From: Planctomycetota bacterium
Lineage (GTDB): Bacteria > Planctomycetota > UBA1135 > GCA-002686595
Reading direction: 5' to 3'
Assembly: GCA_036006425.1 (NCBI GenBank)
Contig: DASYPQ010000022.1
Coordinates: 337,938 to 401,937 of the forward strand
Length of the DNA: 64,000 nt
A model generated the notes under the pieces. That model did no database searches, had not been told where the DNA came from, and saw nothing but the letters and a program-made list of their open reading frames with translations. Positions 5,466 through 60,699 of the stretch are shown piece after piece. The position numbers and the translations under genes were made by a program. Position 1 is the first letter of the stretch. Every line of letters begins with the position of its first letter.

Positions 5466-6374
5466 CTACATCCGCGCGTGAAGCTGGAAGACCTGGTCGT
5501 AGCAGTAGAAGCCGTTGACGGCGATATCCACGTCGATCTTTCCCGGCGCGTATTGCCCGCCAGCGACGTTGCCGCTGTCGAAGCGCTTCGTAGTCCCGTT
5601 GCCATCGGTCAGGTCACAGACCAGGCGCTGCTTGGCCGCACTCGCGTCGACCCTGTAGATGCCGAAGCCGGTGAAGGTCCGTTCCGGCGGCGCCGGTGTG
5701 GGCAGAGTGTGCCAGGCGATGTAGACCAGGGCGTAGTGCTGCACCCCGACGGTGCTCGACGATCCGAGGTCGAGAAGATTGAACGTGCCGACCGCGGGCC
5801 AACTGAAGATCGGGCACAGACACGGCGGCAGGCAGCCCTCCAGGTACTGCGATTGCTCGAGGTGGTAGGGCACGAGCGCGGTTGCGGGCACGGGGGAGGC
5901 CGTGAGACGGAAGACCTGGTCCCAGCAGTAGAATCCGTTCCTCGCGATCGCGATGTCGATCACCGGGAAGTTGCCTCCACCGGCGACCAGGCCGCTGTCG
6001 AAGTGCTTCGGCGCGGCGGTGTCGAACGAAAGGTCCAGCTGCAGCTGGTGGTTGAGGCCGAACTGGCCGCCGACCTTGTACTCGCCGCTGCCGGTGACGC
6101 GTCGCTGCGAGGAGTCGGGCATGTCGACCTCCCAGTTGACGTCCCTGACCGCGTAGTGGTTGTAGCCGGCCGGGTCGGCGTACGTGAACTGCAGCGTGAA
6201 CGTGCCGAACAGGTCGCTCGTCGTGATGATCGGGCACTGGCAGGGCGGCTGACAGCCCTCTTCGAAGGTCGAGTTGGCCTCGAGGCGGTAGATCGTGGGC
6301 GCCGTGCCCGCTCGCGCCTGGGTTGCGATCGCGAGCGAAGTGACCGCGGCGAGAATTGCAATTCCTCGATACAT
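5466..6374 (-). CDS. secreted protein made of two tandem ~145-aa Cys-motif domains (unknown family)
   Basis: Start taken at MYRGIAILAAVTSLAIATQARA (signal peptide). Each half carries EGC.PPC.CPI ... FDSG.VAGG ... ID(I/V)(A/D)IA.NGFYC(W/Y)DQVF. Confidence 0.6.
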   Translation of the reverse strand: MYRGIAILAAVTSLAIATQARAGTAPTIYRLEANSTFEEGCQPPCQCPIITTSDLFGTFTLQFTYADPAGYNHYAVRDVNWEVDMPDSSQRRVTGSGEYKVGGQFGLNHQLQLDLSFDTAAPKHFDSGLVAGGGNFPVIDIAIARNGFYCWDQVFRLTASPVPATALVPYHLEQSQYLEGCLPPCLCPIFSWPAVGTFNLLDLGSSSTVGVQHYALVYIAWHTLPTPAPPERTFTGFGIYRVDASAAKQRLVCDLTDGNGTTKRFDSGNVAGGQYAPGKIDVDIAVNGFYCYDQVFQLHARM

Positions 6375-6828
6375 GGAGCACCTCATTAAATGAAACTGGT
6401 GTGGAACCTGCGCCCTCACACGCAGAGTTCCAGAGTACGCCGCTCGCTCGCGGCCGAAAGGGGAGCTCCGGCAGCCGTCGAGCATCAGATGCGTTATGAA
6501 AATCCCATTGGGCGCTCGTTGGAGATCGCTGAGTGGCCCATGTCGGATTCGACATGCAAGTCGAACTTGGTGGCGACTGCGCGGAGTGAATGCGGAACAC
6601 GCGATCGACGCGCGCGGGCCGAGCGCCTCGCCTCGGGACGGTCGTGGCCCATTCTTTCCGAGGCACCCAGTGGGGCAGCGCGCAACCGATCACCGTCGAG
6701 GACTACGCCGGAGTCGGTCCGCCCGACCTGTGGACCCTGCGCGCGGCGATTCTCGCCGTCGCGGCGGAGTCGCACTGACTCGCCAAGTCGCGCACGGTAT
6801 TCTCTCCGCCCGATCCCAGGAGCCCCCC

Positions 6829-7432: not shown

Positions 7433-10400
7433 TCAGGGCAGCCAGCTCACTCGGTACGCGTTCGACGAGTTGAACGTTCCACCCGGAGGAGTCGGGCAGA
7501 AGGTCGCGCTCGGGTCGCGGTAGTACGTCTGGTAGATGCGGATCTGGCCCGCCTGGATCGTGTCGCCGAGTGCGGCGGAACGCGCCGACACCGACGGCTC
7601 GGCGCCCTGCGGCGCGACGACGACGCCGCCGCTCGCGCTCTTCGCGTACAGCCTCTTCAGCGATCCGCCCGCGCAGCGCAGACCGTCGCCGAAGTGCACC
7701 GGCGCGATCTCCAGGTTGCCCTGGAGGAAGATCGTGAACGCAGTCGGGCGCTCGCCCGAGGCCGTGAACACGAGCGTGTCGGCGGAGAGACTCGGCGTTC
7801 CCGTGACCGTGAGCTGCGCTCCGCCGCTGCCGCCCGAGTTCTCGCAGCCGTGACCGGCCGCGCCGTTGTTCGCGCACGGGCAGGCGGCGCCGGTTCCGTC
7901 GCCGAAGCAGAACGGAGTCATTCCCTGCTCGCATTCGTCGGGGATTCCGTTGCCGTTCGAGTCGATGCTGGTGCCCCCGGTGATGTCGCACGAGTCCGGG
8001 ATCTGGTTCCCGTTGCAATCGGGCGCACCCTGAGCGATCGCGCAGGCGTCGCCGACGTGGTCGCCGTCGCAGTCCTGCTGGCCCGGATTCGAGAGGTTCG
8101 GGCAGTTGTCGCACGCGTCGCCGACACCGTCGCCGTCCGCGTCCTGCTGGCCGGGGTTCGCTACGCCATCGCAGTTGTCGATGCAGTCGGCGACGCCGTC
8201 GCCGTCCGCGTCCGTGTCGGGGACGCCGCACCCGCACTGGCCGGGCGAAGTCTTCAGCGGATCGTTCGGGCAGCCGTCGATGCAGTTCGCGACGCCGTCG
8301 CCGTCCGTGTCGATGTCCGGGACTCCGCAGCCGCACTGGCCCGGAGCGATCTTGTTCGGATCGTTCGGGCACCCGTCGTTGCAGTTCGCGACACCGTCGC
8401 CGTCGCTGTCCGTGTCGGGCACGCCGCAGCCGCATTGGCCGGGCGCGATCTTCGCCGGATCGAAGGGGCAGCCGTCGCTCGAGTCCGGCGTGCCGTCGTT
8501 GTCGTCGTCGGAATCGCACGCATCGCCCAGCGCGTCGCCGTCGTTGTTCGCCTGGTTCGAGTTCGCGATGAACTGGCAGTTGTCGGCGCCGTCCGGGACG
8601 CCGTCGTTGTCGTCGTCGGAGTCGCAGACGTCACCTTGCGCATCCCCGTCGTTGTTCGCCTGGTCGGGATTGGCGACGTTCGGGCAGTTGTCCGACCCGT
8701 CCGGGATCCCGTCGCCGTCGCTGTCCTGGCTCGCGGCGTGGTAGAGGATCTCGACGTCGTCGATCGCCCAGCCGCCGAGCTGCAGACCGCCGTCCGTGCG
8801 GAGCTGGAACTCAAGCTGCGCCGCGGAGTTGTTGTCCGCGAGCGCGCCGAGCTCGACTTCCTGCGTCGACCAGCTCGTGTCGAGGACGTGCGAGCCGGTC
8901 GGGTTCGTCCACGCCTGCACGCCGTTGACGAGGATCGGCGACTGGTCGTAGATCCCCTGCTCGACCGTCAACCAGCGCTTGAAGCGCAGGCGCGTGCCCC
9001 ACTTCGCGCTCAGGTTGATCGTCGGCGAGCGCAGGCGGTTGTGCACGTTCGCACCGTACGCGCCGAGCGGAGTGGAACCGCTGATCCCGAGGTCGTTCGC
9101 CCAGCAGCGCGTCGGGCTCGAGGCGGACGCGGGGTCGCTCCACGCAACACCCTGCGAGGAGCCGCTGCGTCCGGCGGGGGCGCCGTGCTGCCAGTCGTCC
9201 TCCGAGTTGCTCGTGTCCCCGTAGGTCGCGTGCGTCCAGCCGTTGTCGTTCGCGGTCTCGAAGTTGTCGAGGTAGGTCGACGTCAGGACGCCGACCGCGA
9301 AGGCGAGCGTCGTGCCCGGAGCCCCCGTGGGGAAGGTGACGGTGTGGCCGCCGCTGTCGGTCGCCGTCACGTAGTAGTCGATGCGCGCTCCGCCGAGCTG
9401 TCCCGGGATCGACGCCTGGTAGACGTTGCCGCCCTGGTTCGCCATCGCGAGGGAAGTGAACGCGGCGTTGTTGCGGCGGTAGCGCAGCGTCGTCGCCGTC
9501 AGCGGCGGCGAACTCTGCGCGACGATCGTCGCCGACACGACGTAGGGGCCGGTCTCGTTCGAGGTGTCGGGCAGGTCGGTGACGTTCGTGATCGAGATCG
9601 TCGGCAGCGTGAACCCGGGGAAGCCCTGGTCGCGGAATCCGGAGTCGATGTCGGTGAAGTGCGGCGTCCCGTTGTTGATGTTGCCGTCGTTGTCGTCGAG
9701 CGTCAGCCACTGCGTCTCGATGATCGAGCGGATCTGCGTCTGGTTGTAGCCGTTCATCCAGCCCAGGAAGATGTTGTTCGCGATCAGGTCCCCCGCCGCG
9801 TTGCCGTTCGTGACGTTGAGGCGCGCGCGGATCTTCCAGGCGGCGCCCATCCACGGCTCGCCGTCGGCGTGGACCTCGCCGTAGCAGGCCGGGCAGCAGT
9901 CGCCGCAGAACATGCGCGTGTTGTTGCCGTCGCGCACGTTACAGCCCGTGCCGCAGAAGTCCTGGCCGCAGATCGGAGTGTCGTACGAGTACATCGACCA
10001 GACGTCGGCGTTGCCCTCGCCCATACCGTCGCCGCCATTGCCCGTGCTGTACCGGTCGTTGAGCCAGTGGCCCATCTCGTGCGCGATGACGGTCGAATAC
10101 GCCGTGTTCGGGCAGTTGCCGCCGGCGGCGTAGAAGTTGAGCGAGCCGCCGTCGTAGAACGCGTTGCAAGTCTGGGCCAGGTTGACGTTCGCCGTCGCGA
10201 CGAAATCGGCGGTGGCGTCGGCGGGATTGATGGAGCGGACCCAGTCGCGCAGGTGGTTCACGCCGATGAACGCGTTCGCCTGCGAGGTCACGGTGCCCGG
10301 AGCGGCGGGGTTCATCGTGATCGGGTTCGCCTGGTTCGGCTGGAGCGTCTGCGTCAGCGTGTAGTTGGCGCCCGCGGCGTTCAGGACGTTGTTGAACGTC

Positions 10401-11326
10401 CCGACGTACGTGAAGGTGCACGCGAGCGGCGAGTTGACGCCGGGATAGTTGAAGTTGCCGTTCGCGTCCGTGAACACGGTGCCCTGCGAGCTCGTCACGC
10501 GCGCGTAGCGCATGATCTGCGACGTCTCGGGGTTCGAAGGGACGTCGGGCGCGAGCCCGGGCGACGCGAGGCTGCTCACCGTGCCGCCGACGTCGAACTC
10601 GTGCACCGTCGCCTCGCGGCGCAGGACGCGGCCGTCGAGGGCGTCGACCCAGTAGTTGAATCCGATCGGGACGATCCCCGGATCGACCCGGCGCACGTCG
10701 ATCTGCCAGGCGAGGCGGCCCTCGCGGCGCTTCCCGACGAGCGTCTGGTCGATCACGAGCTGGCCCGTCGAGGCTTCCGTGGGCTCGAGGTGCTCGTCCT
10801 CGAGGAACTTCGCGCGGGCGACCGCCTCCGCGGCGAGCGGCGCGTAGACCGGGCGGACGCGGAAGCCCTCGAGCTTCGGGAGCGCGGTCGACTGGACGGA
10901 GAGGAGACGACCCTGCGCGTCGAAGAGCACGTTGACGAATCCGCCGACGACGGGGACGCCGCCGACCGACTGGCGCAGGCGCACCGTGTACTTGTCGCTC
11001 GATCCGATCTGCCCCAGCGGGAGGAACTGCACGCGCTCCTGGCCGAGCGTCACCGCGTCGATCCCGAGCAGCTCGGTCGCGTCCTCGATCGCGCGCCGCG
11101 CGAGCCGCGCGAAATCGGCGTCCTCGCGGGGCGCGAACGCGGCCGGCGCGCTGCCGCCGTAGAGCATCTTCGCGAAGCCGGTCTCCGGATCCGGCTCGAC
11201 GCGCCATTCCGCGCCGCGACTCGTCTTCCAGCGCGCGAGGGCTTCGCCGTCACCCGGCGCGGCCTGGAGGAGCGGCGCCGAGGCGCAGGAAACGACCAGG
11301 AAACGAACGAAAGCGCGTGTCGTCAT
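7433..11326 (-). CDS. large secreted zinc metalloprotease: propeptide-like N-domain, HExxH catalytic domain, lectin/MAM-like domain, thrombospondin type-3 repeats, Cys-rich C-terminal module
   Basis: Signal peptide MTTRAFVRFLVVSCASAPLLQA. FTP/PepSY-like segment. VIAHEMGHWLNDRY zinc motif. Many D.D.DG..D..D.C calcium-binding TSP3 repeats. Terminal CFGDGTGAACPCANNGAAGHGCENS... module. Confidence 0.8.
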   Translation of the reverse strand: MTTRAFVRFLVVSCASAPLLQAAPGDGEALARWKTSRGAEWRVEPDPETGFAKMLYGGSAPAAFAPREDADFARLARRAIEDATELLGIDAVTLGQERVQFLPLGQIGSSDKYTVRLRQSVGGVPVVGGFVNVLFDAQGRLLSVQSTALPKLEGFRVRPVYAPLAAEAVARAKFLEDEHLEPTEASTGQLVIDQTLVGKRREGRLAWQIDVRRVDPGIVPIGFNYWVDALDGRVLRREATVHEFDVGGTVSSLASPGLAPDVPSNPETSQIMRYARVTSSQGTVFTDANGNFNYPGVNSPLACTFTYVGTFNNVLNAAGANYTLTQTLQPNQANPITMNPAAPGTVTSQANAFIGVNHLRDWVRSINPADATADFVATANVNLAQTCNAFYDGGSLNFYAAGGNCPNTAYSTVIAHEMGHWLNDRYSTGNGGDGMGEGNADVWSMYSYDTPICGQDFCGTGCNVRDGNNTRMFCGDCCPACYGEVHADGEPWMGAAWKIRARLNVTNGNAAGDLIANNIFLGWMNGYNQTQIRSIIETQWLTLDDNDGNINNGTPHFTDIDSGFRDQGFPGFTLPTISITNVTDLPDTSNETGPYVVSATIVAQSSPPLTATTLRYRRNNAAFTSLAMANQGGNVYQASIPGQLGGARIDYYVTATDSGGHTVTFPTGAPGTTLAFAVGVLTSTYLDNFETANDNGWTHATYGDTSNSEDDWQHGAPAGRSGSSQGVAWSDPASASSPTRCWANDLGISGSTPLGAYGANVHNRLRSPTINLSAKWGTRLRFKRWLTVEQGIYDQSPILVNGVQAWTNPTGSHVLDTSWSTQEVELGALADNNSAAQLEFQLRTDGGLQLGGWAIDDVEILYHAASQDSDGDGIPDGSDNCPNVANPDQANNDGDAQGDVCDSDDDNDGVPDGADNCQFIANSNQANNDGDALGDACDSDDDNDGTPDSSDGCPFDPAKIAPGQCGCGVPDTDSDGDGVANCNDGCPNDPNKIAPGQCGCGVPDIDTDGDGVANCIDGCPNDPLKTSPGQCGCGVPDTDADGDGVADCIDNCDGVANPGQQDADGDGVGDACDNCPNLSNPGQQDCDGDHVGDACAIAQGAPDCNGNQIPDSCDITGGTSIDSNGNGIPDECEQGMTPFCFGDGTGAACPCANNGAAGHGCENSGGSGGAQLTVTGTPSLSADTLVFTASGERPTAFTIFLQGNLEIAPVHFGDGLRCAGGSLKRLYAKSASGGVVVAPQGAEPSVSARSAALGDTIQAGQIRIYQTYYRDPSATFCPTPPGGTFNSSNAYRVSWLP
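8183..8479 (-). repeat. three in-frame tandem 99-bp (33-aa) modules inside the protease gene
   Basis: DGCP(F/N)DP.K..PGQCGCGVPD.D.DGDGVA(N/D)C(N/I) repeated three times with an exact 99-nt period (units 8183-8281, 8282-8380, 8381-8479). Confidence 0.85.
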
Positions 11327-11454: not shown

Positions 11455-13695
11455 ATGCGCGCCGTGCTCGTCTACTTCGGCGTCTTCCTCGTCGCCCTGT
11501 CGGGGTTGATGTTCGAGATCGGGCTCACGCGGATCTTCTCCGCGACGATCTGGTACCACTTCGCGTTCGTCGCGATCTCGGTCGCGCTGCTCGGCTGGGG
11601 CCTCGGCGGACTCGTGATGCAGCAATGGAAGCGGCGCTGGCAGCCGACTCTCGACGGCGCCGCGTGGCTCTCGCTCGCCTACGCCGCGTCGATCCCGCTG
11701 TGCCTCGGCCTCATCGTGCGGTTCCCGTTCCGGCAGGAGCTCTTGCCGCTGTACTTCTGCGCGTCGCTCCTCCCCTTCCTCCTCGGCGGGATGGTGCTCT
11801 CGGCGGCGTTCGACATCGGCAGGCGGAATGCGCCGAAGCTGTACTTCGCGGATCTCACGGGGGCGTCGCTCGGCGCGCTCGCGGTCACGTTCCTCCTCTC
11901 CTGGCTCGGAGGCGAGACCGCGGTGCTCGCCGTGGCGCTCGCGCCCGCCGTCGCCGCGGCCTGTTTCTCGCCGAAGCGCATCGCGATCGCGTCGATCGCC
12001 GTCGTGATCGTGGGAGCGGCCGTCGCCGTGAACGAGCGCACCGGCCTCTTCCGCATACACAGCGCGCCGACGAAGGGGATGTACCAGCATCTCGCCGCGA
12101 ATCCGGGCACTTCCGTCACGCAGACGGGCTGGAACGCCTACTCGCGCATCGACGCCGTCGAGGGTTTCGAGAAGCCGTACCTCGCGCGCCTCTACATCGA
12201 CTCGGACGCGTGGACGAACGTCCTGCGCGCGGAGGTCGAGACGGATCGCGTGCACCCGATGCGCACCTGGTACCGCGCGCTCCCCTTCCAGCTCACCCGC
12301 GAGCCCGAGGTGCTCGTCATCGGTCCGGGTGGCGGCTCCGACGTGCGCGTGTCGCTCGCCTCCGGCGCGAAGCGCGTCACCGCCGTCGAGCTGAACCCTT
12401 TGATGCTCGAGTTCGTGCGCCACTACGGCGCCGCAGCGGGGAACCTGTACGACCTCCCCCGGGTCGACGTGTTCCTCGGCGAAGGACGCAACTACGTCAG
12501 CCGTTGCGACCGGAAGTTCGACGTGATCTTCCTCGGATTCGTCGACTCGTGGGCGTCGGTGTCGTCGGGCGGGCTCTCGCTCTCCGAGAACTACCTGTAC
12601 ACGGTCGAGGCGTTCCGCGCGTACTACGACCATCTCACCGACGACGGAATGCTCGTCATCCTGCGTTGGGGCATCGACATCCCGCGCCTCGTCACGAACT
12701 CCGTGGCGCTGCTCGGCGCGCCCGACGCGTCGTCGCGGATCGTCGCGCTGCTCGAGAAGGAGCACGGGCCCGGCGATCCGCCGCAGATGACGTTCATGCT
12801 CAAGAAGCGCCCGTTCACGGAGAGCGAGACGAAGGAGATCCACGAGTCGTGGACGTCCGCGCTGCCGGTGATCGTGCCCGGGCGCCACGTCGAGCCGCCG
12901 TACGACGGGCTCTTGTCGGGCGCCGTCTCGCTCCCGCAGTTCGCCCGCGACGCGCGCGACATCGTCGATCCCGTGTTCGACGACAGCCCCTTCTACTTCG
13001 CGACCGAGCGCCCGATCGGGCTCCCGCCGATCATCACGAAGGCTCTGGTCGAGCTCCTGGCGATCGGGCTGGCGCTGTTCGCGGTCTTCGCGTGGCGCGG
13101 CCGGCCGAAGCACGGCGGCTCGAGCTCCTACACCGCGTCGCTCGCCTACTTCGGCTGCCTCGGATTCGGATTCATCGCCGTCGAGCTCTCGCTGATGCAG
13201 CGCCTGATCCTCCTCCTCGGGCACCCGATCTTCACGCTCGCGGTGCTGCTCTTCACGCTGCTCGCGTCGAGCGGCGTCGGCAGCTGGATGAGCGGACGCA
13301 TCTCCGTGCGGCGCGCGTGCATCACGGTCGCCGTGCTCGCGCTGCTCTACACGTTCGCCCTGCCGCCGCTCGTCGTCCTCCTGCTCCCGCTGCCGCTCGC
13401 CGCGCGGATCGCGGCGACGGTCGTGCTCGTGGCGCCGCTCGGGTTCGTGATGGGCATGCCGTTCCCCCAGGGCCTCCGCAGCGCGGGCCGCGGGCCGCTG
13501 CCGGCGCCTCCTTTCTATTGGGGGCTGAACGGGATCATGAGCGTCGTCGGGTCCGGATCGACGATGCTGATCGCCGTGACGCTCGGATTCCGGGCGGCGA
13601 TGCTCGCCGGAGTCCTCTGCTACGCGATCGCCGCGTGGGCGTCGAAGCGCGTCTCAGAGGCAGAAGTCGACGTGCAGCCCGTTGGTCAGGCCTAG
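11455..13695 (+). CDS. polytopic membrane protein with central spermidine/spermine synthase-like methyltransferase-fold domain
   Basis: N- and C-terminal multi-TM regions flank VLVIGPGGGSDVRVSLASGAKRVTAVELNP...FDVIFLGFVDSW...LTDDGMLVI (SpeE-like Rossmann fold). Confidence 0.7.
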   Translation: MRAVLVYFGVFLVALSGLMFEIGLTRIFSATIWYHFAFVAISVALLGWGLGGLVMQQWKRRWQPTLDGAAWLSLAYAASIPLCLGLIVRFPFRQELLPLYFCASLLPFLLGGMVLSAAFDIGRRNAPKLYFADLTGASLGALAVTFLLSWLGGETAVLAVALAPAVAAACFSPKRIAIASIAVVIVGAAVAVNERTGLFRIHSAPTKGMYQHLAANPGTSVTQTGWNAYSRIDAVEGFEKPYLARLYIDSDAWTNVLRAEVETDRVHPMRTWYRALPFQLTREPEVLVIGPGGGSDVRVSLASGAKRVTAVELNPLMLEFVRHYGAAAGNLYDLPRVDVFLGEGRNYVSRCDRKFDVIFLGFVDSWASVSSGGLSLSENYLYTVEAFRAYYDHLTDDGMLVILRWGIDIPRLVTNSVALLGAPDASSRIVALLEKEHGPGDPPQMTFMLKKRPFTESETKEIHESWTSALPVIVPGRHVEPPYDGLLSGAVSLPQFARDARDIVDPVFDDSPFYFATERPIGLPPIITKALVELLAIGLALFAVFAWRGRPKHGGSSSYTASLAYFGCLGFGFIAVELSLMQRLILLLGHPIFTLAVLLFTLLASSGVGSWMSGRISVRRACITVAVLALLYTFALPPLVVLLLPLPLAARIAATVVLVAPLGFVMGMPFPQGLRSAGRGPLPAPPFYWGLNGIMSVVGSGSTMLIAVTLGFRAAMLAGVLCYAIAAWASKRVSEAEVDVQPVGQA

Positions 13696-15717
13696 GCTCG
13701 CCTGCGCCTGGACGTCGCGGAACACCGCCTGGTAGTGGAGCTCCGTGCCCGCCATCCCCGGCGTCACGTGGATCGGGATCGTCGCGCTCCCCGTCGCGTC
13801 GAACTGGAACGTGCTGACGCGCGTGAGCGGACTCGCGAGGTAGAGGAACGCCCCCGCGAACGGCGTCGTCGCCGGGCCGTCGCTGCTGAAGAGCACGGCG
13901 AGCACGCCAGCCTTCGCGTTCCAGATCTCCACCGCGAAATCGTTCACGGCGACCGTCGGCGAGCCGCTGGAGAAGAGACGTGGGTACCCGCCTGCCGCGA
14001 GCCGCTTCGAGACGCCGTAGGGAACGGGCGAGCGGCACGCCCCGGCCACGAGGTCGATCGTCCGCGTGCCCATGAGGACGGGCGCGCTCTTCCCGGCGAA
14101 GACCCACTGGTCGTACGCGAGCTGTCCGAGGTTGTCGGTCGTGTCCGTGTCGCGGATGAACTCGATGTACTCGCGCGACGTCGTCTGATGGTACACGTCG
14201 ACGACGGCGGTGACGGCTCCGGCTGGCGCCGTGTAGAGCGTGTCGTCCCAGTACTGCTGCTCCTCGACGACGACGCCGACGGGCTTCGCCTGGACCGAAT
14301 CGAACGCGGCGTTGCTGAAACCGCGCGGCGGGATCCGGTTGTCGAGGACGGTGGTGTTGTTCAGCGTGAAGTGGAAGCTCGCGCCCTGCGGCACTCCGGT
14401 CGCGGCCGCCATCGCCGCGTCGAGGCCCTGCCGGATCTCGTACACCTTCGTGTCCGCGGTCGTCAGCGTCGCGGTCGCGGAGTCGTAGGCACCGCGCTCG
14501 CCCACGAGCGCCCCCTGGGCATCGAGGAAGCGGACGTGGATCCACATCCGCCGCCCCTCGCCGTAGCCGGTCGGCAGCTTGTGCCCGCTCTGGTTCACGA
14601 TCCGCACGCCGAGATCCGTGCCGATGGTGTAGAGCTCGAGATCGAGCGCGCGCGCGAGCATGTCGGCGTTGCGCGCGTGCGCGTCGGCGACCGACTGCGT
14701 CGAGAGCCCCGACTCGCTGTCGGGGTAGAGGTTGCGGACGGCGTCGAGCACCCACGAGTTCGCGCCCTGGAAGTCGTGCAGCGGGAGGTCCGTCCTCACG
14801 GCACCGCCGAGCACGGGTTGGCACGCCGTGCCCGTCGTCTTCGGCATGTGGCAGTCCTGGCACGTGCTGACCGTCGGCGCGGTGCCGCCGAAGCGTCCGT
14901 TCGTGTCGATCGGCGCCTGCGCGTAGACGCTCTGCTCCCACTCGCCGAACGTGCGCTCGATCGGGAACTCGTCCCGCTTGTCGTGCGTGGGATGCTGCGC
15001 GTGGAAGGCGTTCAACGCGTAGGTCCCGTCGGGCTGGCGCGAGAACTGCGGATTGCTGACTTCGTGGCACGTGGCGCAGAGCAGCGACTCGCGGTGGAAG
15101 GGCGACGGCAGCCAGTCGTGCAGGAAGAAGTTCGGCCCGAGGTCGAACGGTCCGCGGCGCACGTCGGCGGGATCGACGACCATCTGGCCGTTGCCGATGC
15201 TGAACGGGACGAGCGGGAGCGCCGCGAGGATCTGCTGGTCGATCGGCGGGCTCGCGCCGGCCTCGTAGAACGGATCGACGAGACGGTGGCAGACGTGGCA
15301 GTTCGTGCCGTCGAAATCGCCCTGCGCGTTGTCGAGAGCTCCGCCGTCCGGCTGACCGCGTCCTCCGAGGAACCCGCCGGGCGCGTGGCAGCGGAGGCAC
15401 AGGTAGCCCGCGCCGTTCATGTCCTGGTTCGCGATCGCGAGCGTCGCGCGGAACACCGGATCGCGGATGGACTGCGCCATGAGACTCGCGGCCCAGCGCG
15501 TGTACGGCTCCTGGTCGACGTCGTAGCCGCCGTGGCAGACCTGGCAATTCGACGACGGCAGGATCGGCTGCGCGTTCGGATCCGTGAGGCTGCTGCCGGG
15601 CTGGCGGAAGTCGCTGATCGAGGTCGGCAGCGGCAACGAGGAGACCGCGTGCGCGGCGGCGAACGCCAGCGCGGAGAGGACGACGGCCGACGGAGCGAGG
15701 AGGCGAGGGGAACTCAC
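13654..15717 (-). CDS. secreted multihaem (five CxxCH) cytochrome c with non-haem C-terminal beta-rich domain
   Basis: Signal peptide MSSPRLLAPSAVVLSALAFAAAHA. Haem motifs CQVCH, CLRCH, CHVCH, CATCH, CQDCH. Its 3' end overlaps the convergent upstream gene by 42 nt. Confidence 0.75.
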   Translation of the reverse strand: MSSPRLLAPSAVVLSALAFAAAHAVSSLPLPTSISDFRQPGSSLTDPNAQPILPSSNCQVCHGGYDVDQEPYTRWAASLMAQSIRDPVFRATLAIANQDMNGAGYLCLRCHAPGGFLGGRGQPDGGALDNAQGDFDGTNCHVCHRLVDPFYEAGASPPIDQQILAALPLVPFSIGNGQMVVDPADVRRGPFDLGPNFFLHDWLPSPFHRESLLCATCHEVSNPQFSRQPDGTYALNAFHAQHPTHDKRDEFPIERTFGEWEQSVYAQAPIDTNGRFGGTAPTVSTCQDCHMPKTTGTACQPVLGGAVRTDLPLHDFQGANSWVLDAVRNLYPDSESGLSTQSVADAHARNADMLARALDLELYTIGTDLGVRIVNQSGHKLPTGYGEGRRMWIHVRFLDAQGALVGERGAYDSATATLTTADTKVYEIRQGLDAAMAAATGVPQGASFHFTLNNTTVLDNRIPPRGFSNAAFDSVQAKPVGVVVEEQQYWDDTLYTAPAGAVTAVVDVYHQTTSREYIEFIRDTDTTDNLGQLAYDQWVFAGKSAPVLMGTRTIDLVAGACRSPVPYGVSKRLAAGGYPRLFSSGSPTVAVNDFAVEIWNAKAGVLAVLFSSDGPATTPFAGAFLYLASPLTRVSTFQFDATGSATIPIHVTPGMAGTELHYQAVFRDVQAQASLGLTNGLHVDFCL

Positions 15718-23086: not shown

Positions 23087-24748
23087 TCAGCGGCCCGCGC
23101 GCGCCGCGCGAGCCGCCGCGAGGGCGGAGCGCGCCTGCGCGAAGTCCGGCGCGAGCTCGAGGACGCGCTCGAAGTGGGCGATCGCCTCGTCGACGCGGCC
23201 GCGGCTCATCAGCGCGAGCCCCAGGTTGAAGTGGACCTCGTGGAGGTCCGGATCCGTCCGCAGCGCCGCCTCGAAGTGCGCGATCGCCTCGTCGGTGCGT
23301 CCCTGCGTCGCGAGCAGGAAGCCGAGCTGGTGGTGCGCCGCGGCGTGCCTAGCATCGAGCCTCAGCGCGTTCTCGAGCGCCGCGCGCGCTTCCTCGGGGT
23401 GCCCCGTGAGCAGGTAGACGCGGCCGAGGTTGCTCCACCACAGCGGGTAATCCGGCTGGAGCCGGAGCGCTTCGCGGTAGTCGGCGATCGCTTCGTCGTA
23501 CCGCGCGTCGTGGAGGTTCACGTTGCCGAGAATGCCGTGACCGAGGTGGTTCTCGGGCATCACCGCGACGAGGTGGCCGAACAGCGCGCGGTCGTCCTTC
23601 CAAAGGCCGACCTGCCGCCAAGTGAGCGCCGCGAACGCGACCCCGGCGACGATCAGCAGCGCCGCGCCCGCGCGCTTCGCGAGCTCCGCGACGCCGAAGC
23701 CGACGGCGATCGCGAGACCGATCATCGGCACGTACGTGTACCGGTCGGCCATCGCCTGCGGTCCGACCTGCACGAGCCCGATCACGGGGACGAGCGTGCC
23801 GAGGAACCAGAACCATCCGACGGCGAGCCACGGCCGGGACTTCCGCTGGATCCACGCGAACGCGGTCACCGCGGCGAGCAGGAGAGCCGATCCGACGACC
23901 GTCCAGGCCGCGTATCCCGCGGACGGATACGGGTAGTGGACGAGGAGGCGCACGGGGACGACGGCCTTCTCGAGGTACGCGACGCAGGCGACGAGCGCGT
24001 TCTCTGCGCGCAGCCCGACGGCGACCTGTTCCCCGAGCGCCATCGCGCCGCCCGCGTGCTGGACGAGGAACGTGACGACGCTCGACGCGGCGGCGAGCAG
24101 GAACAGCGGAAGCTTCTCGCGCACGAGCCACGGCGCTCCCGCGCGCGCGAGAGGCCAGAGATCGAGCAGCAGCAGCGTGAACGGCAGCGTCACGAGCATC
24201 GGCTTCGAAAGGAGACCGAGCATGTAGAGCGCGAGCACCGCCGCGTACCTCCCCGCCGTCCGCCGCTCCACCCAGCTCACGTACGCCTGCGTCGTCAGGA
24301 TCCAGAAGAACGCCGACAGGACGTCCTTGCGCTCGGCCGCCCACGCGACCGATTCGACGTGCAAGGGATGCAGGCCGAAGACGACGGCGACGAAGGCACT
24401 CGGGCCGACTTCTCGCGTCGTCCGCACGAGCAGGCGGAACAGCAGCACGGTGCTCGCGACGTGCAGCGCGAGGCTCGTCAGGTGGTGACCCGCGGGCTGC
24501 ATCCCGTACAGCTCGACGTCGAGCATGTGCGAGATCCACGTCAACGGATGCCAGTTCGCGGCGTGGCCCGTCGTGAACGCCCATTCGATGCCGCGCGCGG
24601 TCAGCCCGGCCTTCACCATCGGATTCCACGTCACGTAGGTGCCGTCGTCGAGGTCGACGAAGCCGTTCGTGGCGACGCGCGCGTAGGCGAGGATCGTCAA
24701 CGCGGCGAGCGCGGCCCCGACGAGTGCCCTCGACGCGCGTTCGGTCAT
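23087..24748 (-). CDS. TMTC-like GT-C glycosyltransferase-fold membrane protein with C-terminal TPR repeats (paralogue 1)
   Basis: N-terminal multi-TM region with WHPLTWISHMLD...FGLHPLHVESVAWAAERKDVLSAFFW (DUF1736-type block), followed by 5-6 TPR repeats. Its ATG overlaps the paralogue-2 stop (ATGA). Confidence 0.8.
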   Translation of the reverse strand: MTERASRALVGAALAALTILAYARVATNGFVDLDDGTYVTWNPMVKAGLTARGIEWAFTTGHAANWHPLTWISHMLDVELYGMQPAGHHLTSLALHVASTVLLFRLLVRTTREVGPSAFVAVVFGLHPLHVESVAWAAERKDVLSAFFWILTTQAYVSWVERRTAGRYAAVLALYMLGLLSKPMLVTLPFTLLLLDLWPLARAGAPWLVREKLPLFLLAAASSVVTFLVQHAGGAMALGEQVAVGLRAENALVACVAYLEKAVVPVRLLVHYPYPSAGYAAWTVVGSALLLAAVTAFAWIQRKSRPWLAVGWFWFLGTLVPVIGLVQVGPQAMADRYTYVPMIGLAIAVGFGVAELAKRAGAALLIVAGVAFAALTWRQVGLWKDDRALFGHLVAVMPENHLGHGILGNVNLHDARYDEAIADYREALRLQPDYPLWWSNLGRVYLLTGHPEEARAALENALRLDARHAAAHHQLGFLLATQGRTDEAIAHFEAALRTDPDLHEVHFNLGLALMSRGRVDEAIAHFERVLELAPDFAQARSALAAARAARAGR

Positions 24749-35816: not shown

Positions 35817-36427
35817 TCACATCGCCACCGTCGATCCCAGGCTGAAAACGTCGACGTCGAGGGCCGAATCGTCGTTCTTCGACGTGTCGAACTGGAACGC
35901 CCATTCACAGCGCGACCGCGGACGAACCTCGAGCACGATCGAGTCCACCGACGTGCTCATGTCGTCGTCGAGCGACTGCACTTGCGCCGCGGCTTCCCAC
36001 GCATCCGGCACGAACGCGTAGCCGATCGGGCCCAGGTGGTCCAACTGCTCCTTCGTCATCACGGTCAGCTTGACGCCGAGCTTCGCGAAGTGGAGGCGCG
36101 CGACGCGCTCGTCGAGGCGCTTCGGGAGCGTGTACACCTTCTTCCCGTACAGCGACGCGTTCTGGAAGAGCCGATCTGCGCCATGACCTGGTTCGTGAAG
36201 CTCACCGATATGACGAACCTCGGGTGCCCGGTCGCGCAGCCGAGGTTCAGGAGGGGCCTTTCGGCGAGCACGATCACCGAGTGGCCGCCCGGCAACTTCC
36301 ACTCGTCGACCTGCGGCTCGACGTTGATCCGCTGGATGCCGGGGAACTTCGCCTGCGCGGCCATGTCGATCGCGTTGTCGAAGTGACCGATGTTCCCGAC
36401 GATCGCGTTGTGCTTCATCTTCGACAT
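35817..36427 (-). pseudogene. ahcY: remnant of S-adenosyl-L-homocysteine hydrolase: C-terminal third only, 1-nt frameshift, divergent tail
   Basis: [19 protein letters not shown]...[32 protein letters not shown], then after a 1-nt deletion near 36170-36174 the other frame continues [36 protein letters not shown]. The N-terminal ~300 aa of AhcY are absent. Confidence 0.7.
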
Positions 36428-36613
36428 GTGCTCGGCGGTCAGGTTCCAGTTCTCTGCCCAATCAAGTTCGGGAATCGCGGACTCGACGCGGATCCGAGAG
36501 GCTCGCGCTTAACACATCTTCGACATGTGCTCGGCGGTCAGGATCCAGTTCTCTGCCTAATCAAGTTCGGGAATCGCGGACTCGACGCGGATCCGAGAGG
36601 CTCGCGCGCAACA
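36416..36613. repeat. 2 x 99-bp tandem direct repeat at the truncated 5' edge of the ahcY remnant
   Basis: Units 36416-36514 and 36515-36613 differ at about 4 positions. Each unit contains the AEHMSKM-coding edge of the remnant. Confidence 0.85.
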
Positions 36614-48224: not shown

Positions 48225-49316
48225 ATGAGCAGGGAAGTTCTCGTGACGCTCGCGCTCGCGCTCTGCGCGGCCCCTCTGTCCGCGCAGAACTTCAACCTCG
48301 ACTTCGGCGAGCCCGCGAACCAGCCGCCTGCGACGTACGCCGCTGCCGCGGGTCCTGGGTACTGGAACTCGATCCGCGCAGAGAACGGGCACGACTACCC
48401 GCTCAGGGACCTCGCCGGCAACGCGACGGGCGTGCACGTGTTCACGAGCGGCTCTGCGGCGCCGATCACCTCGACCGATCCGAGCGTCACCGGCGACGAC
48501 GCCCTGCTGATGAACGACGGCACGATCACCTACGACAGTTCCTTCGGCAGCAACTTCTACGTCGAGGGCCTCGCGCCGGGGACCTATGACCTGATCGTCT
48601 ACGCGTGGCGCCCGGACGTCCCAGCACAGATGGCGGAGACGTTCGTCGACTACACGATCGGCCTCTACGACACGGGTGGCGCGTGGCCCGGCGGACACGT
48701 CCAGGGGATCACCTACGCGCGCTTCACCGTGACCGTGTTCGGGAACGGCGAGATCGGGGTGCACTCCGGCCTCGCGGGCAGCGCGGATCCCGCGATCGGA
48801 GCTGTCTGCAACGGCATGCAGCTGCGAAGGATCGAAGAGCAGACCCCATTCTGCTTCGGCGACGGATCGGGGAGCGCCTGTCCGTGCGGCAACAGCGGTG
48901 CGCCCGGCCACGGCTGCGAGAATTCGTCCTCGACGGGAGGAGCGCTGCTCACTTCGTCCGGGACGACGATTCCCGACGAGCTCGTGCTCGCTGCGACCGG
49001 CGAGAAGCCCACGGCGCTCACGATCTTCCTCCAGGGAACGGCGTCGGTTGCTGCCGTCCCGTACGGAGACGGTTTGCGCTGCGTGTCCGGATCTCTCAGG
49101 CGCCTCTTCGTCCGCAATGCGAGCGGCGGTGCGGTCTCGGTTCCGCAAGGAGTCGATCCTTCGATCACCGCGCGGTCGTCCCAGCTCGGCGATCCGATCC
49201 CGGTGGGCGCGACGCGCTTCTACATGACCTACTACCGCGATCCGGACGCATCGTTCTGCCCGGGCCCGAGCGGCGGAACGTTCAACGCCTCGAACTGCCT
49301 TTCGGTCCACTGGTAA
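48225..49316 (+). CDS. small secreted protein: beta-rich N-domain plus Cys-rich C-terminal module
   Basis: Signal peptide MSREVLVTLALALCAAPLSA. The last 154 aa, CFGDGSGSACPCGNSGAPGHGCENS...YYRDPDASFCPGPSGGTFNASNCLSVHW, match the protease and the 58617 gene. Confidence 0.7.
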   Translation: MSREVLVTLALALCAAPLSAQNFNLDFGEPANQPPATYAAAAGPGYWNSIRAENGHDYPLRDLAGNATGVHVFTSGSAAPITSTDPSVTGDDALLMNDGTITYDSSFGSNFYVEGLAPGTYDLIVYAWRPDVPAQMAETFVDYTIGLYDTGGAWPGGHVQGITYARFTVTVFGNGEIGVHSGLAGSADPAIGAVCNGMQLRRIEEQTPFCFGDGSGSACPCGNSGAPGHGCENSSSTGGALLTSSGTTIPDELVLAATGEKPTALTIFLQGTASVAAVPYGDGLRCVSGSLRRLFVRNASGGAVSVPQGVDPSITARSSQLGDPIPVGATRFYMTYYRDPDASFCPGPSGGTFNASNCLSVHW

Positions 49317-58534: not shown

Positions 58535-58617
58535 GTACGGAGCCAGAGCAGATTCTCAACGATTTCGGCCGGGCAGTGCCCGGCTGAAATCGTTGAGAAT
58601 CTGCTCTGGCTCCGTAC
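58535..58617. repeat. 83-nt near-perfect palindromic element, copy B
   Basis: Identical to copy A at 81 of 83 positions. It differs only in the central CCCGG(TC/CT)GAAAT. Confidence 0.9.
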
Positions 58618-60443
58618 TACCAAAAGATCGCGACGCCGCTGCTCACGTTCCAGGTGTTCCCCGGCGGATTCGGGCAGAACGCCGGCGCCGCGTCGCGGTA
58701 CCAGGTCTGGTACCAGCGCATCGATCCCGGCGCGATCGGATCGCCGAGCGCGGCCGAACGCGCGCTGATCGACGGATCCCCGGCGCCCGGGTAGGCCGCG
58801 GCGCCGCCCGACGCGCTCTTCGTCCCGATCCGCTTCATCGCTCCGCCGACGCAGCGCACGCCGTCGCCGAACACGGCGCCCGAGGTCAGCACCACGTTGC
58901 CTTGGAGGAAGATGCAGAGCGAGGTCGAGAGCATCCCCGTTGCGGACAGCGTCACCGTGTCCGGGCTCGCGGCGCCCGCGGCGAGCAGCACGGCGCCTTC
59001 GCCGAGGATGTCGGAGTTCAAGCAGCCGTGTCCGGGCGATCCCGTGTTCCCGCACGGGCACGCCGTCGGGAGCGATCCGTCGCCGAAGCAGAACGTCTGG
59101 TAGAGGATGTTCGGCAGCTCGTACGCGCCCATGTCGACGATCGGGATCGTGCCGCTCCCGGTGTCCGCCGTCGCCGCCGCGTCCTCGAACCGCGGCGTGA
59201 GATCGAGGTCGAGCGTCGAGGTCGCCGGGACGGCCGCGTTGTTGCCCGCGTCCGCGCACGGCGACGACGCGCTCGTGTGGTAGTCGCCCCCGCCGGGATT
59301 CACGAGCAGCGGATCCGCGGAGATGTTGCCCGTGCCGCCGATCCCGCCTTGCACGCAGGAGTAGCTCACCGTGGTGTTGCCGCTGATCTGGTTCAGCGTC
59401 CCCTGCGCGCCGCCCGGACCCGTGTTGAGGTAGAAGATCGAGTTCGCGATCGTCGTCGCGCCGCCGCTCGCGAGCAGCCCCGCCGCCGCGTTCACGTTCG
59501 AGACGTTGCCGACGACGGTGCAGCCACGGATCGCCGGAGCGGAGCTCGAGGCGACGTAGATCGCGCCTCCACCGCCCGAGCCCGTCGAGGTGTTGCCGTG
59601 GAAGAGGCAGTCGTAGAGCTTCGTCGTCGAGCCGCTGAAGATCTCGACGCCGCCCGCGCGCTGCGCCGTGTTGCCCGCGAAGACGCAGCGGTGGAACTGC
59701 GCGGCGACGCCGTCGAACATGTCGAACGCGCCGCCAAAGGACCCGCCGACGTTCGTGAGGAACGAGCACTCGTAGAACTTCGGGCTGCTCTGGCGGATGT
59801 ATCCCGCTCCCCCGCCGAAAGTGCAGCGGTTGCCGATGACGCGGCAGCGCGTGAAGGTCGGGTTGCTGGCCGAGACGAGCAACAGTCCGCCCCCGCGGTC
59901 GTCGTCGGTCGCGGCCGAGCCGTTCGCGTTGCCGCCGGTGACGACGAAGCCGTCGAAGAGCGCGGTCGCGTTCGCGCCGTTGCCGCGCACGACGTGGTAG
60001 CTGTTCTCGCCGAGGTTGCCGCCGCCGTCGTCGCCCGCGAGGTCGCCGGTCAGCGTCGCGATGTTCACGGCGGGATCGCGTTGGCCGAGGGTCACCTCCC
60101 CGCCCGCGAAGCCGCCGTAGACCTCGACGCCGGTCTTCGTCACGAAGGACTGGGTCCGGTCCGAGCCGGCCGTGGGCTCGTAGGTCCCGTCGGCGACCCA
60201 GATCTGGTCTCCGGCCGTCGACGCCGCGAGTGCCGCCTGGAGGCCGCCGGATCCCTGGAACGCGTCGGCCCAGGTCGAGCCGTTGTTCCCGCCGCTGGCG
60301 AGGGACGCATCGACATAGAGGGTGCCCGCGAAGACCGGGCTCGCCGCGAGGACGACCCCGAGGGCCGCAAGGAAGCGGGAATGGAGCGCGGCGAGGGGTC
60401 GGGAGCGGAGGATCGCGGTGAGTCGGAAGGGATCGGAGCGCAT
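58617..60443 (-). CDS. secreted Pmp-like parallel beta-helix protein with Cys-rich C-terminal module
   Basis: Start at MRSDPFRLTAILRSRPLAALHSRFLAALGVVLAASPVFA. Repeats of the GGG(A/L).....S.P....C.F..N type. The last 157 aa are CFGDGSLPTACPCGNTGSPGHGCLNS...WYRDAAPAFCPNPPGNTWNVSSGVAIFW. Confidence 0.7.
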   Translation of the reverse strand: MRSDPFRLTAILRSRPLAALHSRFLAALGVVLAASPVFAGTLYVDASLASGGNNGSTWADAFQGSGGLQAALAASTAGDQIWVADGTYEPTAGSDRTQSFVTKTGVEVYGGFAGGEVTLGQRDPAVNIATLTGDLAGDDGGGNLGENSYHVVRGNGANATALFDGFVVTGGNANGSAATDDDRGGGLLLVSASNPTFTRCRVIGNRCTFGGGAGYIRQSSPKFYECSFLTNVGGSFGGAFDMFDGVAAQFHRCVFAGNTAQRAGGVEIFSGSTTKLYDCLFHGNTSTGSGGGGAIYVASSSAPAIRGCTVVGNVSNVNAAAGLLASGGATTIANSIFYLNTGPGGAQGTLNQISGNTTVSYSCVQGGIGGTGNISADPLLVNPGGGDYHTSASSPCADAGNNAAVPATSTLDLDLTPRFEDAAATADTGSGTIPIVDMGAYELPNILYQTFCFGDGSLPTACPCGNTGSPGHGCLNSDILGEGAVLLAAGAASPDTVTLSATGMLSTSLCIFLQGNVVLTSGAVFGDGVRCVGGAMKRIGTKSASGGAAAYPGAGDPSISARSAALGDPIAPGSMRWYQTWYRDAAPAFCPNPPGNTWNVSSGVAIFW

Positions 60444-60699
60444 GGGGTTCAGGGGGCAGGGGGTCGGGAGTGCGGAAGCGTCGGATGCTAGCACGCGCGC
60501 GCATCCGCGGAATGCGAACTCCTCCCCAAGCGGCCCGGATCGTGTGAATGAACCCGGTCATCCCCCTGAAAAACGTCGGGCTCGTCGCCCAGGATCGCGC
60601 GCGGAGCGCGTCGGGTGTTCGGTTTGCGAAAGGGCACTGCCTCGCGCTCCGCTTGGTCAGTATGGTTGCGCCCTATATCCACCCCAAAGGAGGTGTCTC

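Follow-up and report, generated by a model that had tools for sequence, protein, structure and literature searches.

The window (the whole stretch of DNA analyzed here, 64 kb from a Planctomycetota bacterium) encodes three predicted secreted proteins that end in the same six-cysteine module and a fourth carrier, a cytochrome-like protein, that ends in a divergent member of the same superfamily. The respective features are:

7433..11326, minus strand: carrier 1, 1297 aa, with a signal peptide, FTP propeptide, HEMGH metalloprotease core, MAM-like region, seven TSP3 repeats and the module
7436..7909, minus strand: module copy 1, 158 aa (FCFGDG...YRVSWLP), the final domain of the metalloprotease; HMM E 5.8e-90
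13654..15717, minus strand: carrier 4, 687 aa, secreted, with a signal peptide and five CxxCH haem motifs (multihaem cytochrome-like; pentahaem)
13657..14037, minus strand: superfamily member 4, 127 aa, divergent and Cys-poor (...HYQAVFRD...LTNGLHVDFCL, then stop)
48225..49316, plus strand: carrier 2, 363 aa, with a signal peptide (...PLSA, followed by QN), an N-terminal domain of ~190 aa and the module
48852..49313, plus strand: module copy 2, 154 aa (...LSVHW, then stop); HMM E 9.2e-94
58617..60494, minus strand: carrier 3, a right-handed beta-helix (PF13229, E 1e-10; weak Pmp repeat) followed by the module
58620..59090, minus strand: module copy 3, 157 aa (...VAIFW, then stop); HMM E 3.4e-86

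These four superfamily members are scattered among unrelated housekeeping genes, and an Rfam search of the whole window detected no RNA family. Copy 1 begins exactly at the first Cys codon of FCFGDG and closes with the last sense codon (...VSWLP), the TGA stop lying at 7433-7435. In copies 2 and 3, the conserved Trp immediately precedes the stop codon, and across the three copies the gap between the module and the stop is 0-2 residues. All three six-Cys carriers have a signal-peptide-like N-terminus; the true start of carrier 3 is probably the ATG at 60443, with the signal peptide behind it. Carriers 1 and 2 are deposited at NCBI as HEV8113580.1 ('thrombospondin type 3 repeat-containing protein') and HEV8113608.1 ('hypothetical protein'), respectively. 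A first-pass annotation of this DNA had proposed that three secreted proteins with unrelated cargo share a C-terminal module, and this proposal holds: all three ORFs are real and the module is detected in each of them, 0-2 residues before the stop, at E 3e-86 to 9e-94. The HExxH protease with TSP3 repeats described there is recovered, with its FTP propeptide, HEMGH motif and seven repeats; for the Pmp-like beta-helix, the right-handed beta-helix is supported and the Pmp repeat is weak. The label 'lectin-like', given to the 363-aa carrier 2, is backed by no match, and a Pfam scan of its ~190-aa N-terminal domain likewise gives none. Small carriers homologous to carrier 2 are represented by P0132, P0183 and P0202.

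An HMM of the three copies, searched against the six-frame translation of the window, yields exactly three matches (E 9e-94, 6e-90 and 3e-86), the runner-up being at E 0.057. Over ~160 aa, copy 1 shares 61% identity with copy 2 and 52% with copy 3; the DNA identity of the copies is 61-69%, so they are not recent duplicates. The three-copy alignment contains 69 invariant columns, including all six cysteines that had been singled out as invariant. The N-terminal parts of the carriers are mutually dissimilar (blastp E>=0.17), in agreement with the cargo being unrelated. Among 123 family members, C17, C19, C29, C86 and C145 never vary and C8 is conserved at 90% or more; 19 columns of this alignment are invariant, and paralogues attached to unrelated cargo are 52-78% identical. 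The signature of this branch consists of the FCFGDG-x(3,4)-CPC-x-N-x-G-x(2)-G-x-GC-x-NS cap, FLQG, FGDGLRC, Y-Q-x-Y-Y-R-D, an FCP loop and a Trp 0-3 aa before the stop, and every one of these elements is present in all three window copies. As the first-pass annotation had noted, there is no terminal hydrophobic helix or basic tail: within the module, the Kyte-Doolittle mean over 19 residues peaks at 0.81-1.47, and the last 40 residues of the module proteins contain 2-3 Lys and Arg and end in W, WLP and similar. No conserved linker or cleavage motif was found upstream of the module.

Searches of databases and the literature support the earlier statement that the module is unnamed. Three modules and three divergent variants gave zero Pfam matches at E<=10. 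In NCBIfam, nothing matched the module at E<=10 or the module region in the full proteins at E<=1; the only tag-related NCBIfam match is MtsC, through the TSP3 region and not the MtsC tag. Sequence searches of the PDB with the 3-sequence and 123-sequence profiles gave no match (best E 0.67), and the fold search described below gave no significant one; no characterized family was matched. No account of the domain came up in a full-text literature search by topic and sequence motif. DUF6087, which recurs in the carriers, was rejected as a spurious, 17-residue low-complexity match located just 5' of the module. The family itself is extensive. The profile built from the three window copies recovers at least 1,440 proteins, and the 123-sequence profile retrieves 7,503 cluster representatives (50% identity clusters, E<=1e-3), 2,009 of them at E<=1e-30. 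Almost all members come from metagenome-assembled genomes (MAGs) of uncultured Planctomycetota, with multiple copies per genome, and the taxon labels of the clusters that were looked up read only 'Planctomycetota/Planctomycetes bacterium'. A single MAG holds at least 13 copies, counting the fetched loci alone. In some MAGs, the carriers form tandem arrays.

The six-Cys module belongs, as one of its branches, to an unnamed domain superfamily that is very large and has no Pfam, NCBIfam or PDB counterpart. A sister family, also unnamed and found in Planctomycetota MAGs, has the consensus 'YC..NS.G.GA...FFYG...PFGNG.RCV...FQFWYRDP..GGAGFNLSDGLSVTFCP'. The six-Cys profile aligns with this family (FQFWYRDP...TFCP) over 133 columns with an hhalign probability of 99.8% (E 1.7e-29), and P0278, P0373, P0380 and P0384 are intermediates between the two branches. 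Like the six-Cys branch, the sister family occupies the extreme C-terminus of signal-peptide proteins in the same phylum and has a homologous beta-sandwich core; its predicted all-beta secondary structure, the level at which the two models were compared, is similar to that of the six-Cys module. Unlike the six-Cys branch, it has neither the FCFGDG...CPC...GHGC cap nor the FCP loop, and it terminates in Phe-Cys-Pro rather than Trp. The C-terminus of the cytochrome (13657..14037) is matched by the HMM of the sister family at E 1e-13, and the hhalign comparison of the respective profiles gives 98.8% (E 6e-17). When the cytochrome C-terminus is compared directly with the six-Cys profile, the similarity is weak (1.3% and 20% probability, the latter with E 1.1e-3); it is therefore the link through the sister family that places this domain in the superfamily. 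A single-sequence search with the cytochrome C-terminal domain found only 3 close relatives. Both this fourth member and the broader superfamily with its Cys-poor members had been missed in the first-pass annotation. The cysteine pair C29-C86 is kept across the whole superfamily.

The C-terminal position of the module, on which much of its interpretation had hinged from the beginning, holds at scale. Among the genomic instances, 107 of 110 end 0-3 aa from the stop codon; the module is C-terminal in all of the best 150 cluster representatives (150/150); and a conserved Trp lies among the last 4 residues in 258 of 259 proteins, being the very last residue in 138. Each protein has a single copy, and no tandem or internal ones occur. 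The 3 exceptions among the 110 instances look like the loss of a stop codon, with the reading frame running into Arg-rich, out-of-frame-like sequence. One of the loci (L073) was considered as a possible internal copy and rejected, because the 386 aa after the module are Arg-rich, as high-GC DNA typically reads in a wrong frame or past a lost stop. Stand-alone 'proteins' of 162-170 aa that begin with MT(S/A)FCFGDG come mostly from short contigs and look like fragments or gene calls from an internal Met, not like cargo-less modules. Signal peptides, the absence of which from most carriers had been named as refuting the tag reading, were detected by a hydropathy heuristic in 96 of the 115 Met-starting representatives. 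The cargo includes Rax2, DUF5122, PD40 and Kelch propellers, FG-GAP repeats, legume and C-type lectins, a T9SS-associated galactose-binding domain, a cupredoxin, CarboxypepD_reg, the protease, the beta-helix and the pentahaem cytochrome, a set that is mutually unrelated and typical of cell-surface or secreted proteomes.

Two independent AlphaFold models, with pLDDT of 95.7 (copy 1) and 94.2, both predict a beta-sandwich. Over 158-165 aa, the AF2 model shows ~10 strands together with one helix and a Cys-rich coil of 35 aa; the strands, at 4-10 residues, are short and have charged motifs such as YYRD inside them. Foldseek searches found no significant neighbor in the PDB for either model (best E 0.025 and 0.0047, TM<=0.48) or, for one model, in BFVD (best E 0.011, again TM<=0.48). 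The weak neighbors are generic Ig/Fn3-like adhesin, transglutaminase-barrel and LPMO/X325-type sandwiches and a viral galactose-binding-domain protein. The module can accordingly be described as a predicted disulfide-rich beta-sandwich, confidently modeled and with no close structural neighbor.

To our knowledge, the transport of folded proteins to or over the outer membrane of Planctomycetota is poorly understood, and no C-terminal domain tag specific for this phylum has been described. From the position of the module and the cargo statistics, we infer a function in sorting, secretion or attachment. The reading that we favor, tentatively and with considerable doubt, sees the module as a lineage-specific domain that sorts the secretome of one uncultured Planctomycetota group or retains it at the surface. 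Its invariable placement at the end of unrelated cargo makes it look like a common address or anchor tag; the strong conservation between paralogues with unrelated cargo fits a single common partner; and the near-exclusive restriction to Planctomycetota would follow if the tag works with machinery specific to the lineage. Under this scenario, Sec would export the carrier by means of the N-terminal signal peptide, which is apparent in the sequences, and the module would then fold in the periplasm, its six cysteines forming three disulfides, with C29-C86 probably one of these. The conserved face and the free C-terminal strand with its invariant aromatic end (Trp in the six-Cys branch, Phe-Cys-Pro in the sister family) might be recognized by one shared envelope component, which would either move the folded cargo over the outer membrane or fix it on the cell surface; the tag could possibly be cut off afterwards.

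The tag reading of the first-pass annotation is thus supported in part, by the position, single copy, varied cargo and signal peptides but not by the genomic context, in which no sorting enzyme, translocon or conserved neighbor was found. Around 78 loci (+/-3 kb), the flanking ORFs were clustered all against all, and 150 that passed a GC3 filter were scanned with Pfam; the neighbors carry 158 different Pfam families, and no secretin, barrel, peptidase or sortase-like gene recurs among them. The sole recurring neighborhood is local synteny at the beta-helix orthologue, where an ECF sigma-CarboxypepD_reg fusion occurs together with a redoxin. The 33 Pfam-annotated proteins of the window include no secretion component, and SprA, PorV and PorU were seen neither in the 64-kb window nor in the +/-3 kb flanks of related loci. 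A TPR_Slam match (23087-24748) was rejected as evidence of Slam, being one of 21 overlapping generic TPR matches on the same protein. Further points count against the sorting reading, one being the lack of a conserved linker or cleavage motif noted above. The conservation is far above that of known sorting C-terminal domains (CTDs), those of type IX secretion (T9SS) being poorly conserved with very low mutual identity (PMC11285876), and could point instead to a precise ligand-binding site; moreover, a terminal position is by itself no proof of sorting.

Such a site is at the core of the most serious alternative, which we consider possible although rather unlikely, namely that the module plays no role in export and is a carbohydrate-binding or adhesion-like anchor that sticks secreted proteins to the cell's own envelope glycan, to the extracellular matrix or to the surface of an external substrate or prey. 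The beta-sandwich fold and the weak neighbors among Ig/Fn3-like adhesin, LPMO/X325-type and viral galactose-binding-domain structures are compatible with such an anchor, and the invariant polar and aromatic residues (N21, D51, D82, R131, R138, D139, N154 and YYRD) are a candidate binding site; high conservation suits a defined ligand, and many of the carriers are lectins, propellers and enzymes. However, known binding modules are N-terminal, internal or tandem whereas this one occurs singly and at the terminus almost without exception, and no Pfam model of a carbohydrate-binding module (CBM) or lectin matched it at E<=10. Substrate targeting also makes little sense for cupredoxins and a multihaem cytochrome; these redox carriers are a better fit for an anchor or sorting tag than for a glycan-targeting module. 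Binding to the cell's own envelope would overlap with the retention half of the favored reading.

An improbable alternative is that the module acts as a C-terminal pro-domain, as an intramolecular chaperone or by self-association, aiding folding or building a surface lattice, and is then removed or buried, like the pre-peptidase C-terminal (PPC) domains. The terminal position on a secreted protease, the compact, independently folding domain with disulfides that the models predict and the tandem arrays of carriers would be in line with such a role; nevertheless, the cargo folds are too varied for a dedicated chaperone, models of PPC and other pro-domains are unmatched, and there is no sign of self-association. 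We consider it very improbable that the module is a small, autotransporter- or OmpX-like outer-membrane beta-barrel anchor with the C-terminal hydrophobic-x-Trp serving as a BAM beta-signal. The chain does end in a strand that closes with h-x-h-x-W/F, the passenger of one carrier is a Pmp-like beta-helix, and ~160 aa is close to the size of 8-stranded barrels. Short strands with internal charged motifs, three disulfides and a 35-aa Cys-rich coil are nonetheless unlike membrane barrels, none of which is among the best 50 Foldseek matches of either model; there is also no autotransporter or OMP match in Pfam, and the maximum hydropathy is low. Finally, that the module is a divergent true T9SS CTD served by a T9SS in these genomes is hardly credible: the two share a general logic (signal peptide, varied cargo, terminal beta-sandwich, important C-terminus) and one carrier contains the Pfam domain GBD_T9SS_assoc, but no sorting-domain model (TIGR04183, type A; TIGR04131, type B; Por_Secre_tail) matched the module in Pfam and NCBIfam at E<=10, the CTD structures 5AG8 and 5Y1A are absent from the best 50 Foldseek matches of either model, and the system is described as specific for Bacteroidota (PMC4804311, PMC11285876), the host phylum here being Planctomycetota.

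If the favored reading of a sorting or anchoring tag is correct, the HMM would delimit which proteins of these uncultured bacteria are secreted or at the surface, redox proteins that possibly act outside the cell among them, and would provide a handle for finding the machinery. In any case, the signal-peptide proteins that the superfamily picks out in each genome form a coherent set. Even if it is a binding module, a family model is deserved because PGAP names such proteins 'hypothetical' or after their repeats.

Among the known systems, the tripartite tags (PEP-CTERM/exosortase, MYXO-CTERM, GlyGly-CTERM/rhombosortase and LPXTG/sortase) resemble the module in being strictly C-terminal, lineage-specific and many-to-one. 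These tags, however, consist of a motif, a TM helix and a basic tail within ~20-35 aa whereas the module is globular, 155-160 aa long and has neither helix nor tail, and the NCBIfam models of PEP-CTERM, MYXO-CTERM, GlyGly-CTERM and LPXTG did not match it; its separation from PEP-CTERM, LPXTG, MYXO-CTERM and the T9SS CTD in the first-pass annotation agrees with the lack of any model or fold match. CBMs and PPC are also small beta-sandwiches on secreted enzymes, often C-terminal; CBMs are positionally free and often tandem, in contrast to the always single and terminal module, which is also found on non-enzymes, cupredoxins and a cytochrome. In the Slam/T11SS systems of Proteobacteria, a folded C-terminal beta domain of ~150 aa, an 8-stranded barrel, is the outer-membrane translocation signal for unrelated cargo; none of these cargo domain families was detected in the Pfam scans of the carriers. 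The T9SS CTD, a C-terminal beta-sandwich with a C-terminal motif required for export (PMC11285876, PMC4804311), shares with the module the combination of a Sec signal peptide and an extreme C-terminal beta-sandwich, dispersed genes, a constrained C-terminal strand and dozens of unrelated cargoes per genome, of overlapping types (propellers, lectins, proteases and beta-helices). Its fold is a compact 3+4 seven-stranded Ig-like sandwich of ~65-80 residues, as in 5AG8 and 5Y1A (PMC11285876), compared with ~10 strands and ~160 aa in the module, which is about twice as large, carries the 35-aa Cys-rich cap and three probable disulfides, is far more conserved, with 50-78% identity between paralogues, and shows no sequence or fold match to the CTD. 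Altogether, it is conceivable, if on balance doubtful, that an as yet undescribed system for outer-membrane translocation or surface attachment, confined to an uncultured, high-GC Planctomycetota lineage, uses the superfamily, including the Cys-poor sisters, as its cargo signal, in which case the superfamily would be an independently evolved functional analogue of the T9SS CTD, and the cargo repertoire of this system (proteases, lectins, propellers, cupredoxins and multihaem cytochromes) could be read straight from the genomes.

The first-pass annotation described three secreted proteins that end in the same six-cysteine (FCFGDG...) module, and all three open reading frames are present in the window (G+C content 68.9%):

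7433-11326, - strand: carrier 1, 1297 aa (HEV8113580.1)
7436-7909, - strand: module copy 1, bounded exactly by the first FCFGDG Cys codon and the last codon before the stop (...VSWLP; TGA at 7433-7435)
48225-49316, + strand: carrier 2, 363 aa (HEV8113608.1)
48852-49313, + strand: module copy 2, last residue Trp, stop codon next
58617-60494, - strand: carrier 3, 625 aa; probable true start, the ATG at 60443
58620-59090, - strand: module copy 3, last residue Trp, stop codon next

All three carriers have signal-peptide-like N-termini, and none of the modules has a terminal hydrophobic helix or basic tail, as originally noted. Copy 1 shares 61% and 52% identity with the other two copies, and the six cysteines called invariant are all among the 69 invariant columns of the three copies. 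The DNA identity among the modules is only 61-69%, indicating that these are old paralogous domains rather than recent copies. An HMM built from the three copies matched exactly these three in the six-frame translation of the window (E 1e-86 to 1e-94), with no further copy better than E 0.057. The N-terminal parts share no mutual similarity (blastp E>=0.17), in agreement with their description as unrelated cargoes. Carrier 1 is indeed a protease with TSP3 repeats, seven in number; it also contains an FTP propeptide, the HEMGH motif (residue 416) and a MAM-like region. Of the proposed Pmp-like beta-helix in carrier 3, the right-handed beta-helix stands and the Pmp repeat match is weak; the 'lectin-like' label for carrier 2 is unsupported because no hit was obtained for this protein.

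The module occurs as the last domain, in a single copy per protein, of signal peptide-containing proteins with unrelated cargo, and in many copies per genome. At least 1,440 proteins with the module were identified by a word-indexed profile search, all named 'hypothetical' or after the cargo (e.g., plastocyanin), and when 1.84 billion cluster representatives were searched exhaustively with the HMM, 7,503 matched at E<=1e-3, 5,444 at E<=1e-10 and 2,009 at E<=1e-30. In species-representative genomes, 305 loci were confirmed from just two peptide patterns. About 22 MAGs from wastewater, soil, lake and groundwater samples account for the best 80 of these 305 loci, with no cultured organism among them; all but two of these MAGs, both short contigs, carry a Planctomycetota, Planctomycetia, Planctomycetaceae or planctomycete label. 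Among the retrieved loci, as many as 13 belong to the same MAG, and some copies are tandem paralogues. Of 115 representatives that start with Met, 96 have a signal peptide according to a hydropathy heuristic, the remainder being mostly borderline cases or truncated gene calls. The cargo is highly diverse and includes Rax2/DUF5122/PD40/Kelch propellers, FG-GAP, legume and C-type lectins, cupredoxin, CarboxypepD_reg and a T9SS-associated galactose-binding domain. The Rax2/DUF5122 propeller carriers (~540-930 aa; P0122, P0123, P0126, P0128, P0129 and many more) form one abundant class with a stereotyped signal-peptide end, A-x-A, followed by the mature N-terminus Q-C-x-x-W, suggesting that a Cys is conserved at the N-terminus of the mature proteins.

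The strict C-terminal position, initially proposed from the window alone, holds across the wider family. The module lies within 2 aa of the protein end in 119 of 120 top matches and is C-terminal in all 150 top cluster representatives; 107 of 110 genomic copies stop 0-3 aa short of the stop codon, the exceptions having tails of 11, 22 and 386 aa. A conserved Trp is found within the last four residues of 258 of 259 proteins and is the very last residue in 138. The two tails inspected (22 and 386 aa) consist of basic, Arg-rich run-on sequence and look like stop-codon loss or assembly error. The only apparent internal copy, at residues 497-654 of 1040 in locus L073 (CAZKIO010000057.1), was rejected: the frame continues for 386 Arg-rich residues past the conserved ...VEVLW, most likely by such an event, and the 22-residue basic read-through in locus L065 is similar.

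No Pfam or NCBIfam model covers the module, even at E<=10, and no relatives were found in the PDB by sequence. The AlphaFold2 model, based on a 123-sequence alignment, is very confident (pLDDT 95.7, pTM 0.90) and predicts a Cys-rich N-terminal segment of ~35 residues with little regular structure ahead of roughly ten beta-strands and a single short helix. Foldseek searches with this model gave nothing significant in BFVD or the PDB (best PDB E 0.025, TM-score at most 0.40), the weak PDB neighbors being generic Ig/Fn3, transglutaminase-barrel and adhesin sandwiches. Descriptions of the domain were found in the literature neither by topic nor by sequence motif, and the NCBI pipeline names the carriers 'hypothetical' or after their repeats.

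The module has a further, divergent relative in the window:

13654-15717, - strand: carrier 4, secreted cytochrome with a signal peptide, five CxxCH haem motifs and a divergent, Cys-poor C-terminal member

Its C-terminus (HYQAVFRD...LTNGLHVDF) resembles the last strands of the module (YQTYYRD...FNSSNAYRVSW), and the direct comparison with the six-Cys profile gave a weak match. Scanning related loci with the 123-sequence HMM revealed intermediate variants, the profile of which led to a sister family of 347 proteins (consensus YC..PNS.G.GA...GLFFYG...PFGNG.RCV...STWNFQ.WYRDPAAGGAGFNLSDGL.VTFCP) that is likewise extreme C-terminal, comes from Planctomycetota MAGs and lacks Pfam domains. The two branches are aligned by hhalign with 99.8% probability (E 1.7e-29, 133 columns), and the cytochrome domain with the sister family at 98.8% (E 6e-17). 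In the window, the sister-family HMM detects the end of carrier 4 at E 1e-13 and all three six-Cys copies at E 1e-16 to 1e-23, so that the window holds four superfamily members, not three. The AlphaFold2 model of one sister-family member, independent of the module model, is confident (pLDDT 94.2) and has no significant PDB neighbors (best E 0.0047, TM<=0.48). The only cysteines conserved in both branches are the equivalents of module C29 and C86, from which we infer one disulfide. Four proteins (P0278, P0373, P0380 and P0384) join a six-Cys-type cap, CPCGN...GC.NS, to the FQ.WYRDP...FNL(S/T)NGL core and (T/G/A)(P/S) ending that mark the sister family; these mixed sequence features indicate a continuum of subfamilies. 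Altogether, this is a very large, unnamed and structurally distinctive superfamily with a predicted beta-sandwich fold, restricted to one bacterial lineage, almost only Planctomycetota MAGs.

A different C-terminal region of ~110 aa, ...NRW(F/Y)R.SGNA..MF...TIGSYHASIGG.ATLDAFMAEARLQSK.NWR.QYTA.AVN.Y(I/V)RAGFG, is common to two convergent, paralogous large secreted proteins (39710-42325, +, and 42408-45032, -; 1254-nt inverted repeat, 79%; beta-helix/DUF6923 and BACON_2 matches) and may be another lineage-specific C-terminal module. A 339-aa signal-peptide protein (5466-6485, -) without Pfam matches consists of two internal repeats, and the motif EGCxPPCxCPI occurs in both.

The carriers are dispersed among ordinary genes, including those for arginine decarboxylase, carbamoyltransferase, a spermidine-synthase-like protein, ABC transporter parts, an aminotransferase, a two-component system with a sigma-54 activator, UvrD-like helicase, Fpg and molybdopterin oxidoreductase with Fe-S/NrfD subunits, among others; no secretion or sortase-like gene is present within the 64 kb. 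In the flanks of 78 related loci, 150 GC3-filtered ORFs matched 158 different Pfam families, and the sole recurrent ones are redoxins and ECF sigma factors, the latter in part as CarboxypepD_reg fusions. Both flank carrier 3:

55535-58510, - strand: ECF sigma factor fused to a long CarboxypepD_reg-repeat protein
60322-61380, + strand: secreted AhpC/redoxin

The sigma fusion recurs in 5 MAGs and the redoxin in 4 (L055 and other related loci); given the same pair here, this recurrence is read as local synteny of the beta-helix orthologue, and no partner for the module was found among the window genes or in the 78 flanks. The sigma fusion gene is bracketed by two 87-nt near-perfect palindromes (55453-55539 and 58535-58621; 98% identical, 41-nt arms, 1-nt loop) without Rfam matches, the second overlapping the carrier 3 stop codon by five bases (58617-58621); these may be REP/MITE-like elements or bidirectional terminators. 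Other repeats in the window are a 99-nt tandem duplication (36416-36613; perfect register, 96% identical) directly upstream of a histidine-kinase gene (36842-38227) and the direct repeats D1, D2 and D5 (74-83% identity, 1652-nt register) of tandem paralogous TPR-protein genes (23087-24748, -, and ~24750-26400).

The evidence for the module family and for its architecture is solid, and the scale is surprising; the function we infer. In the favored, still tentative reading, the module would be a shared address or retention domain that folds in the periplasm and is then recognized by a common envelope partner. The main rival, a ligand-binding anchor, appears somewhat less likely: it agrees with the unusually high conservation of the module, but poorly with an absolute constraint on position or with cupredoxin and cytochrome cargo. 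Less likely still are, in descending order, a pro-domain or oligomerization domain, a membrane barrel and a true T9SS CTD. The proposed address or retention role is alike in logic to that of the T9SS CTD, whose C-terminal motif is essential (PMC11285876; PMC4804311). As a folded C-terminal cargo tag, the module would represent a new family, a new fold and a new phylum.
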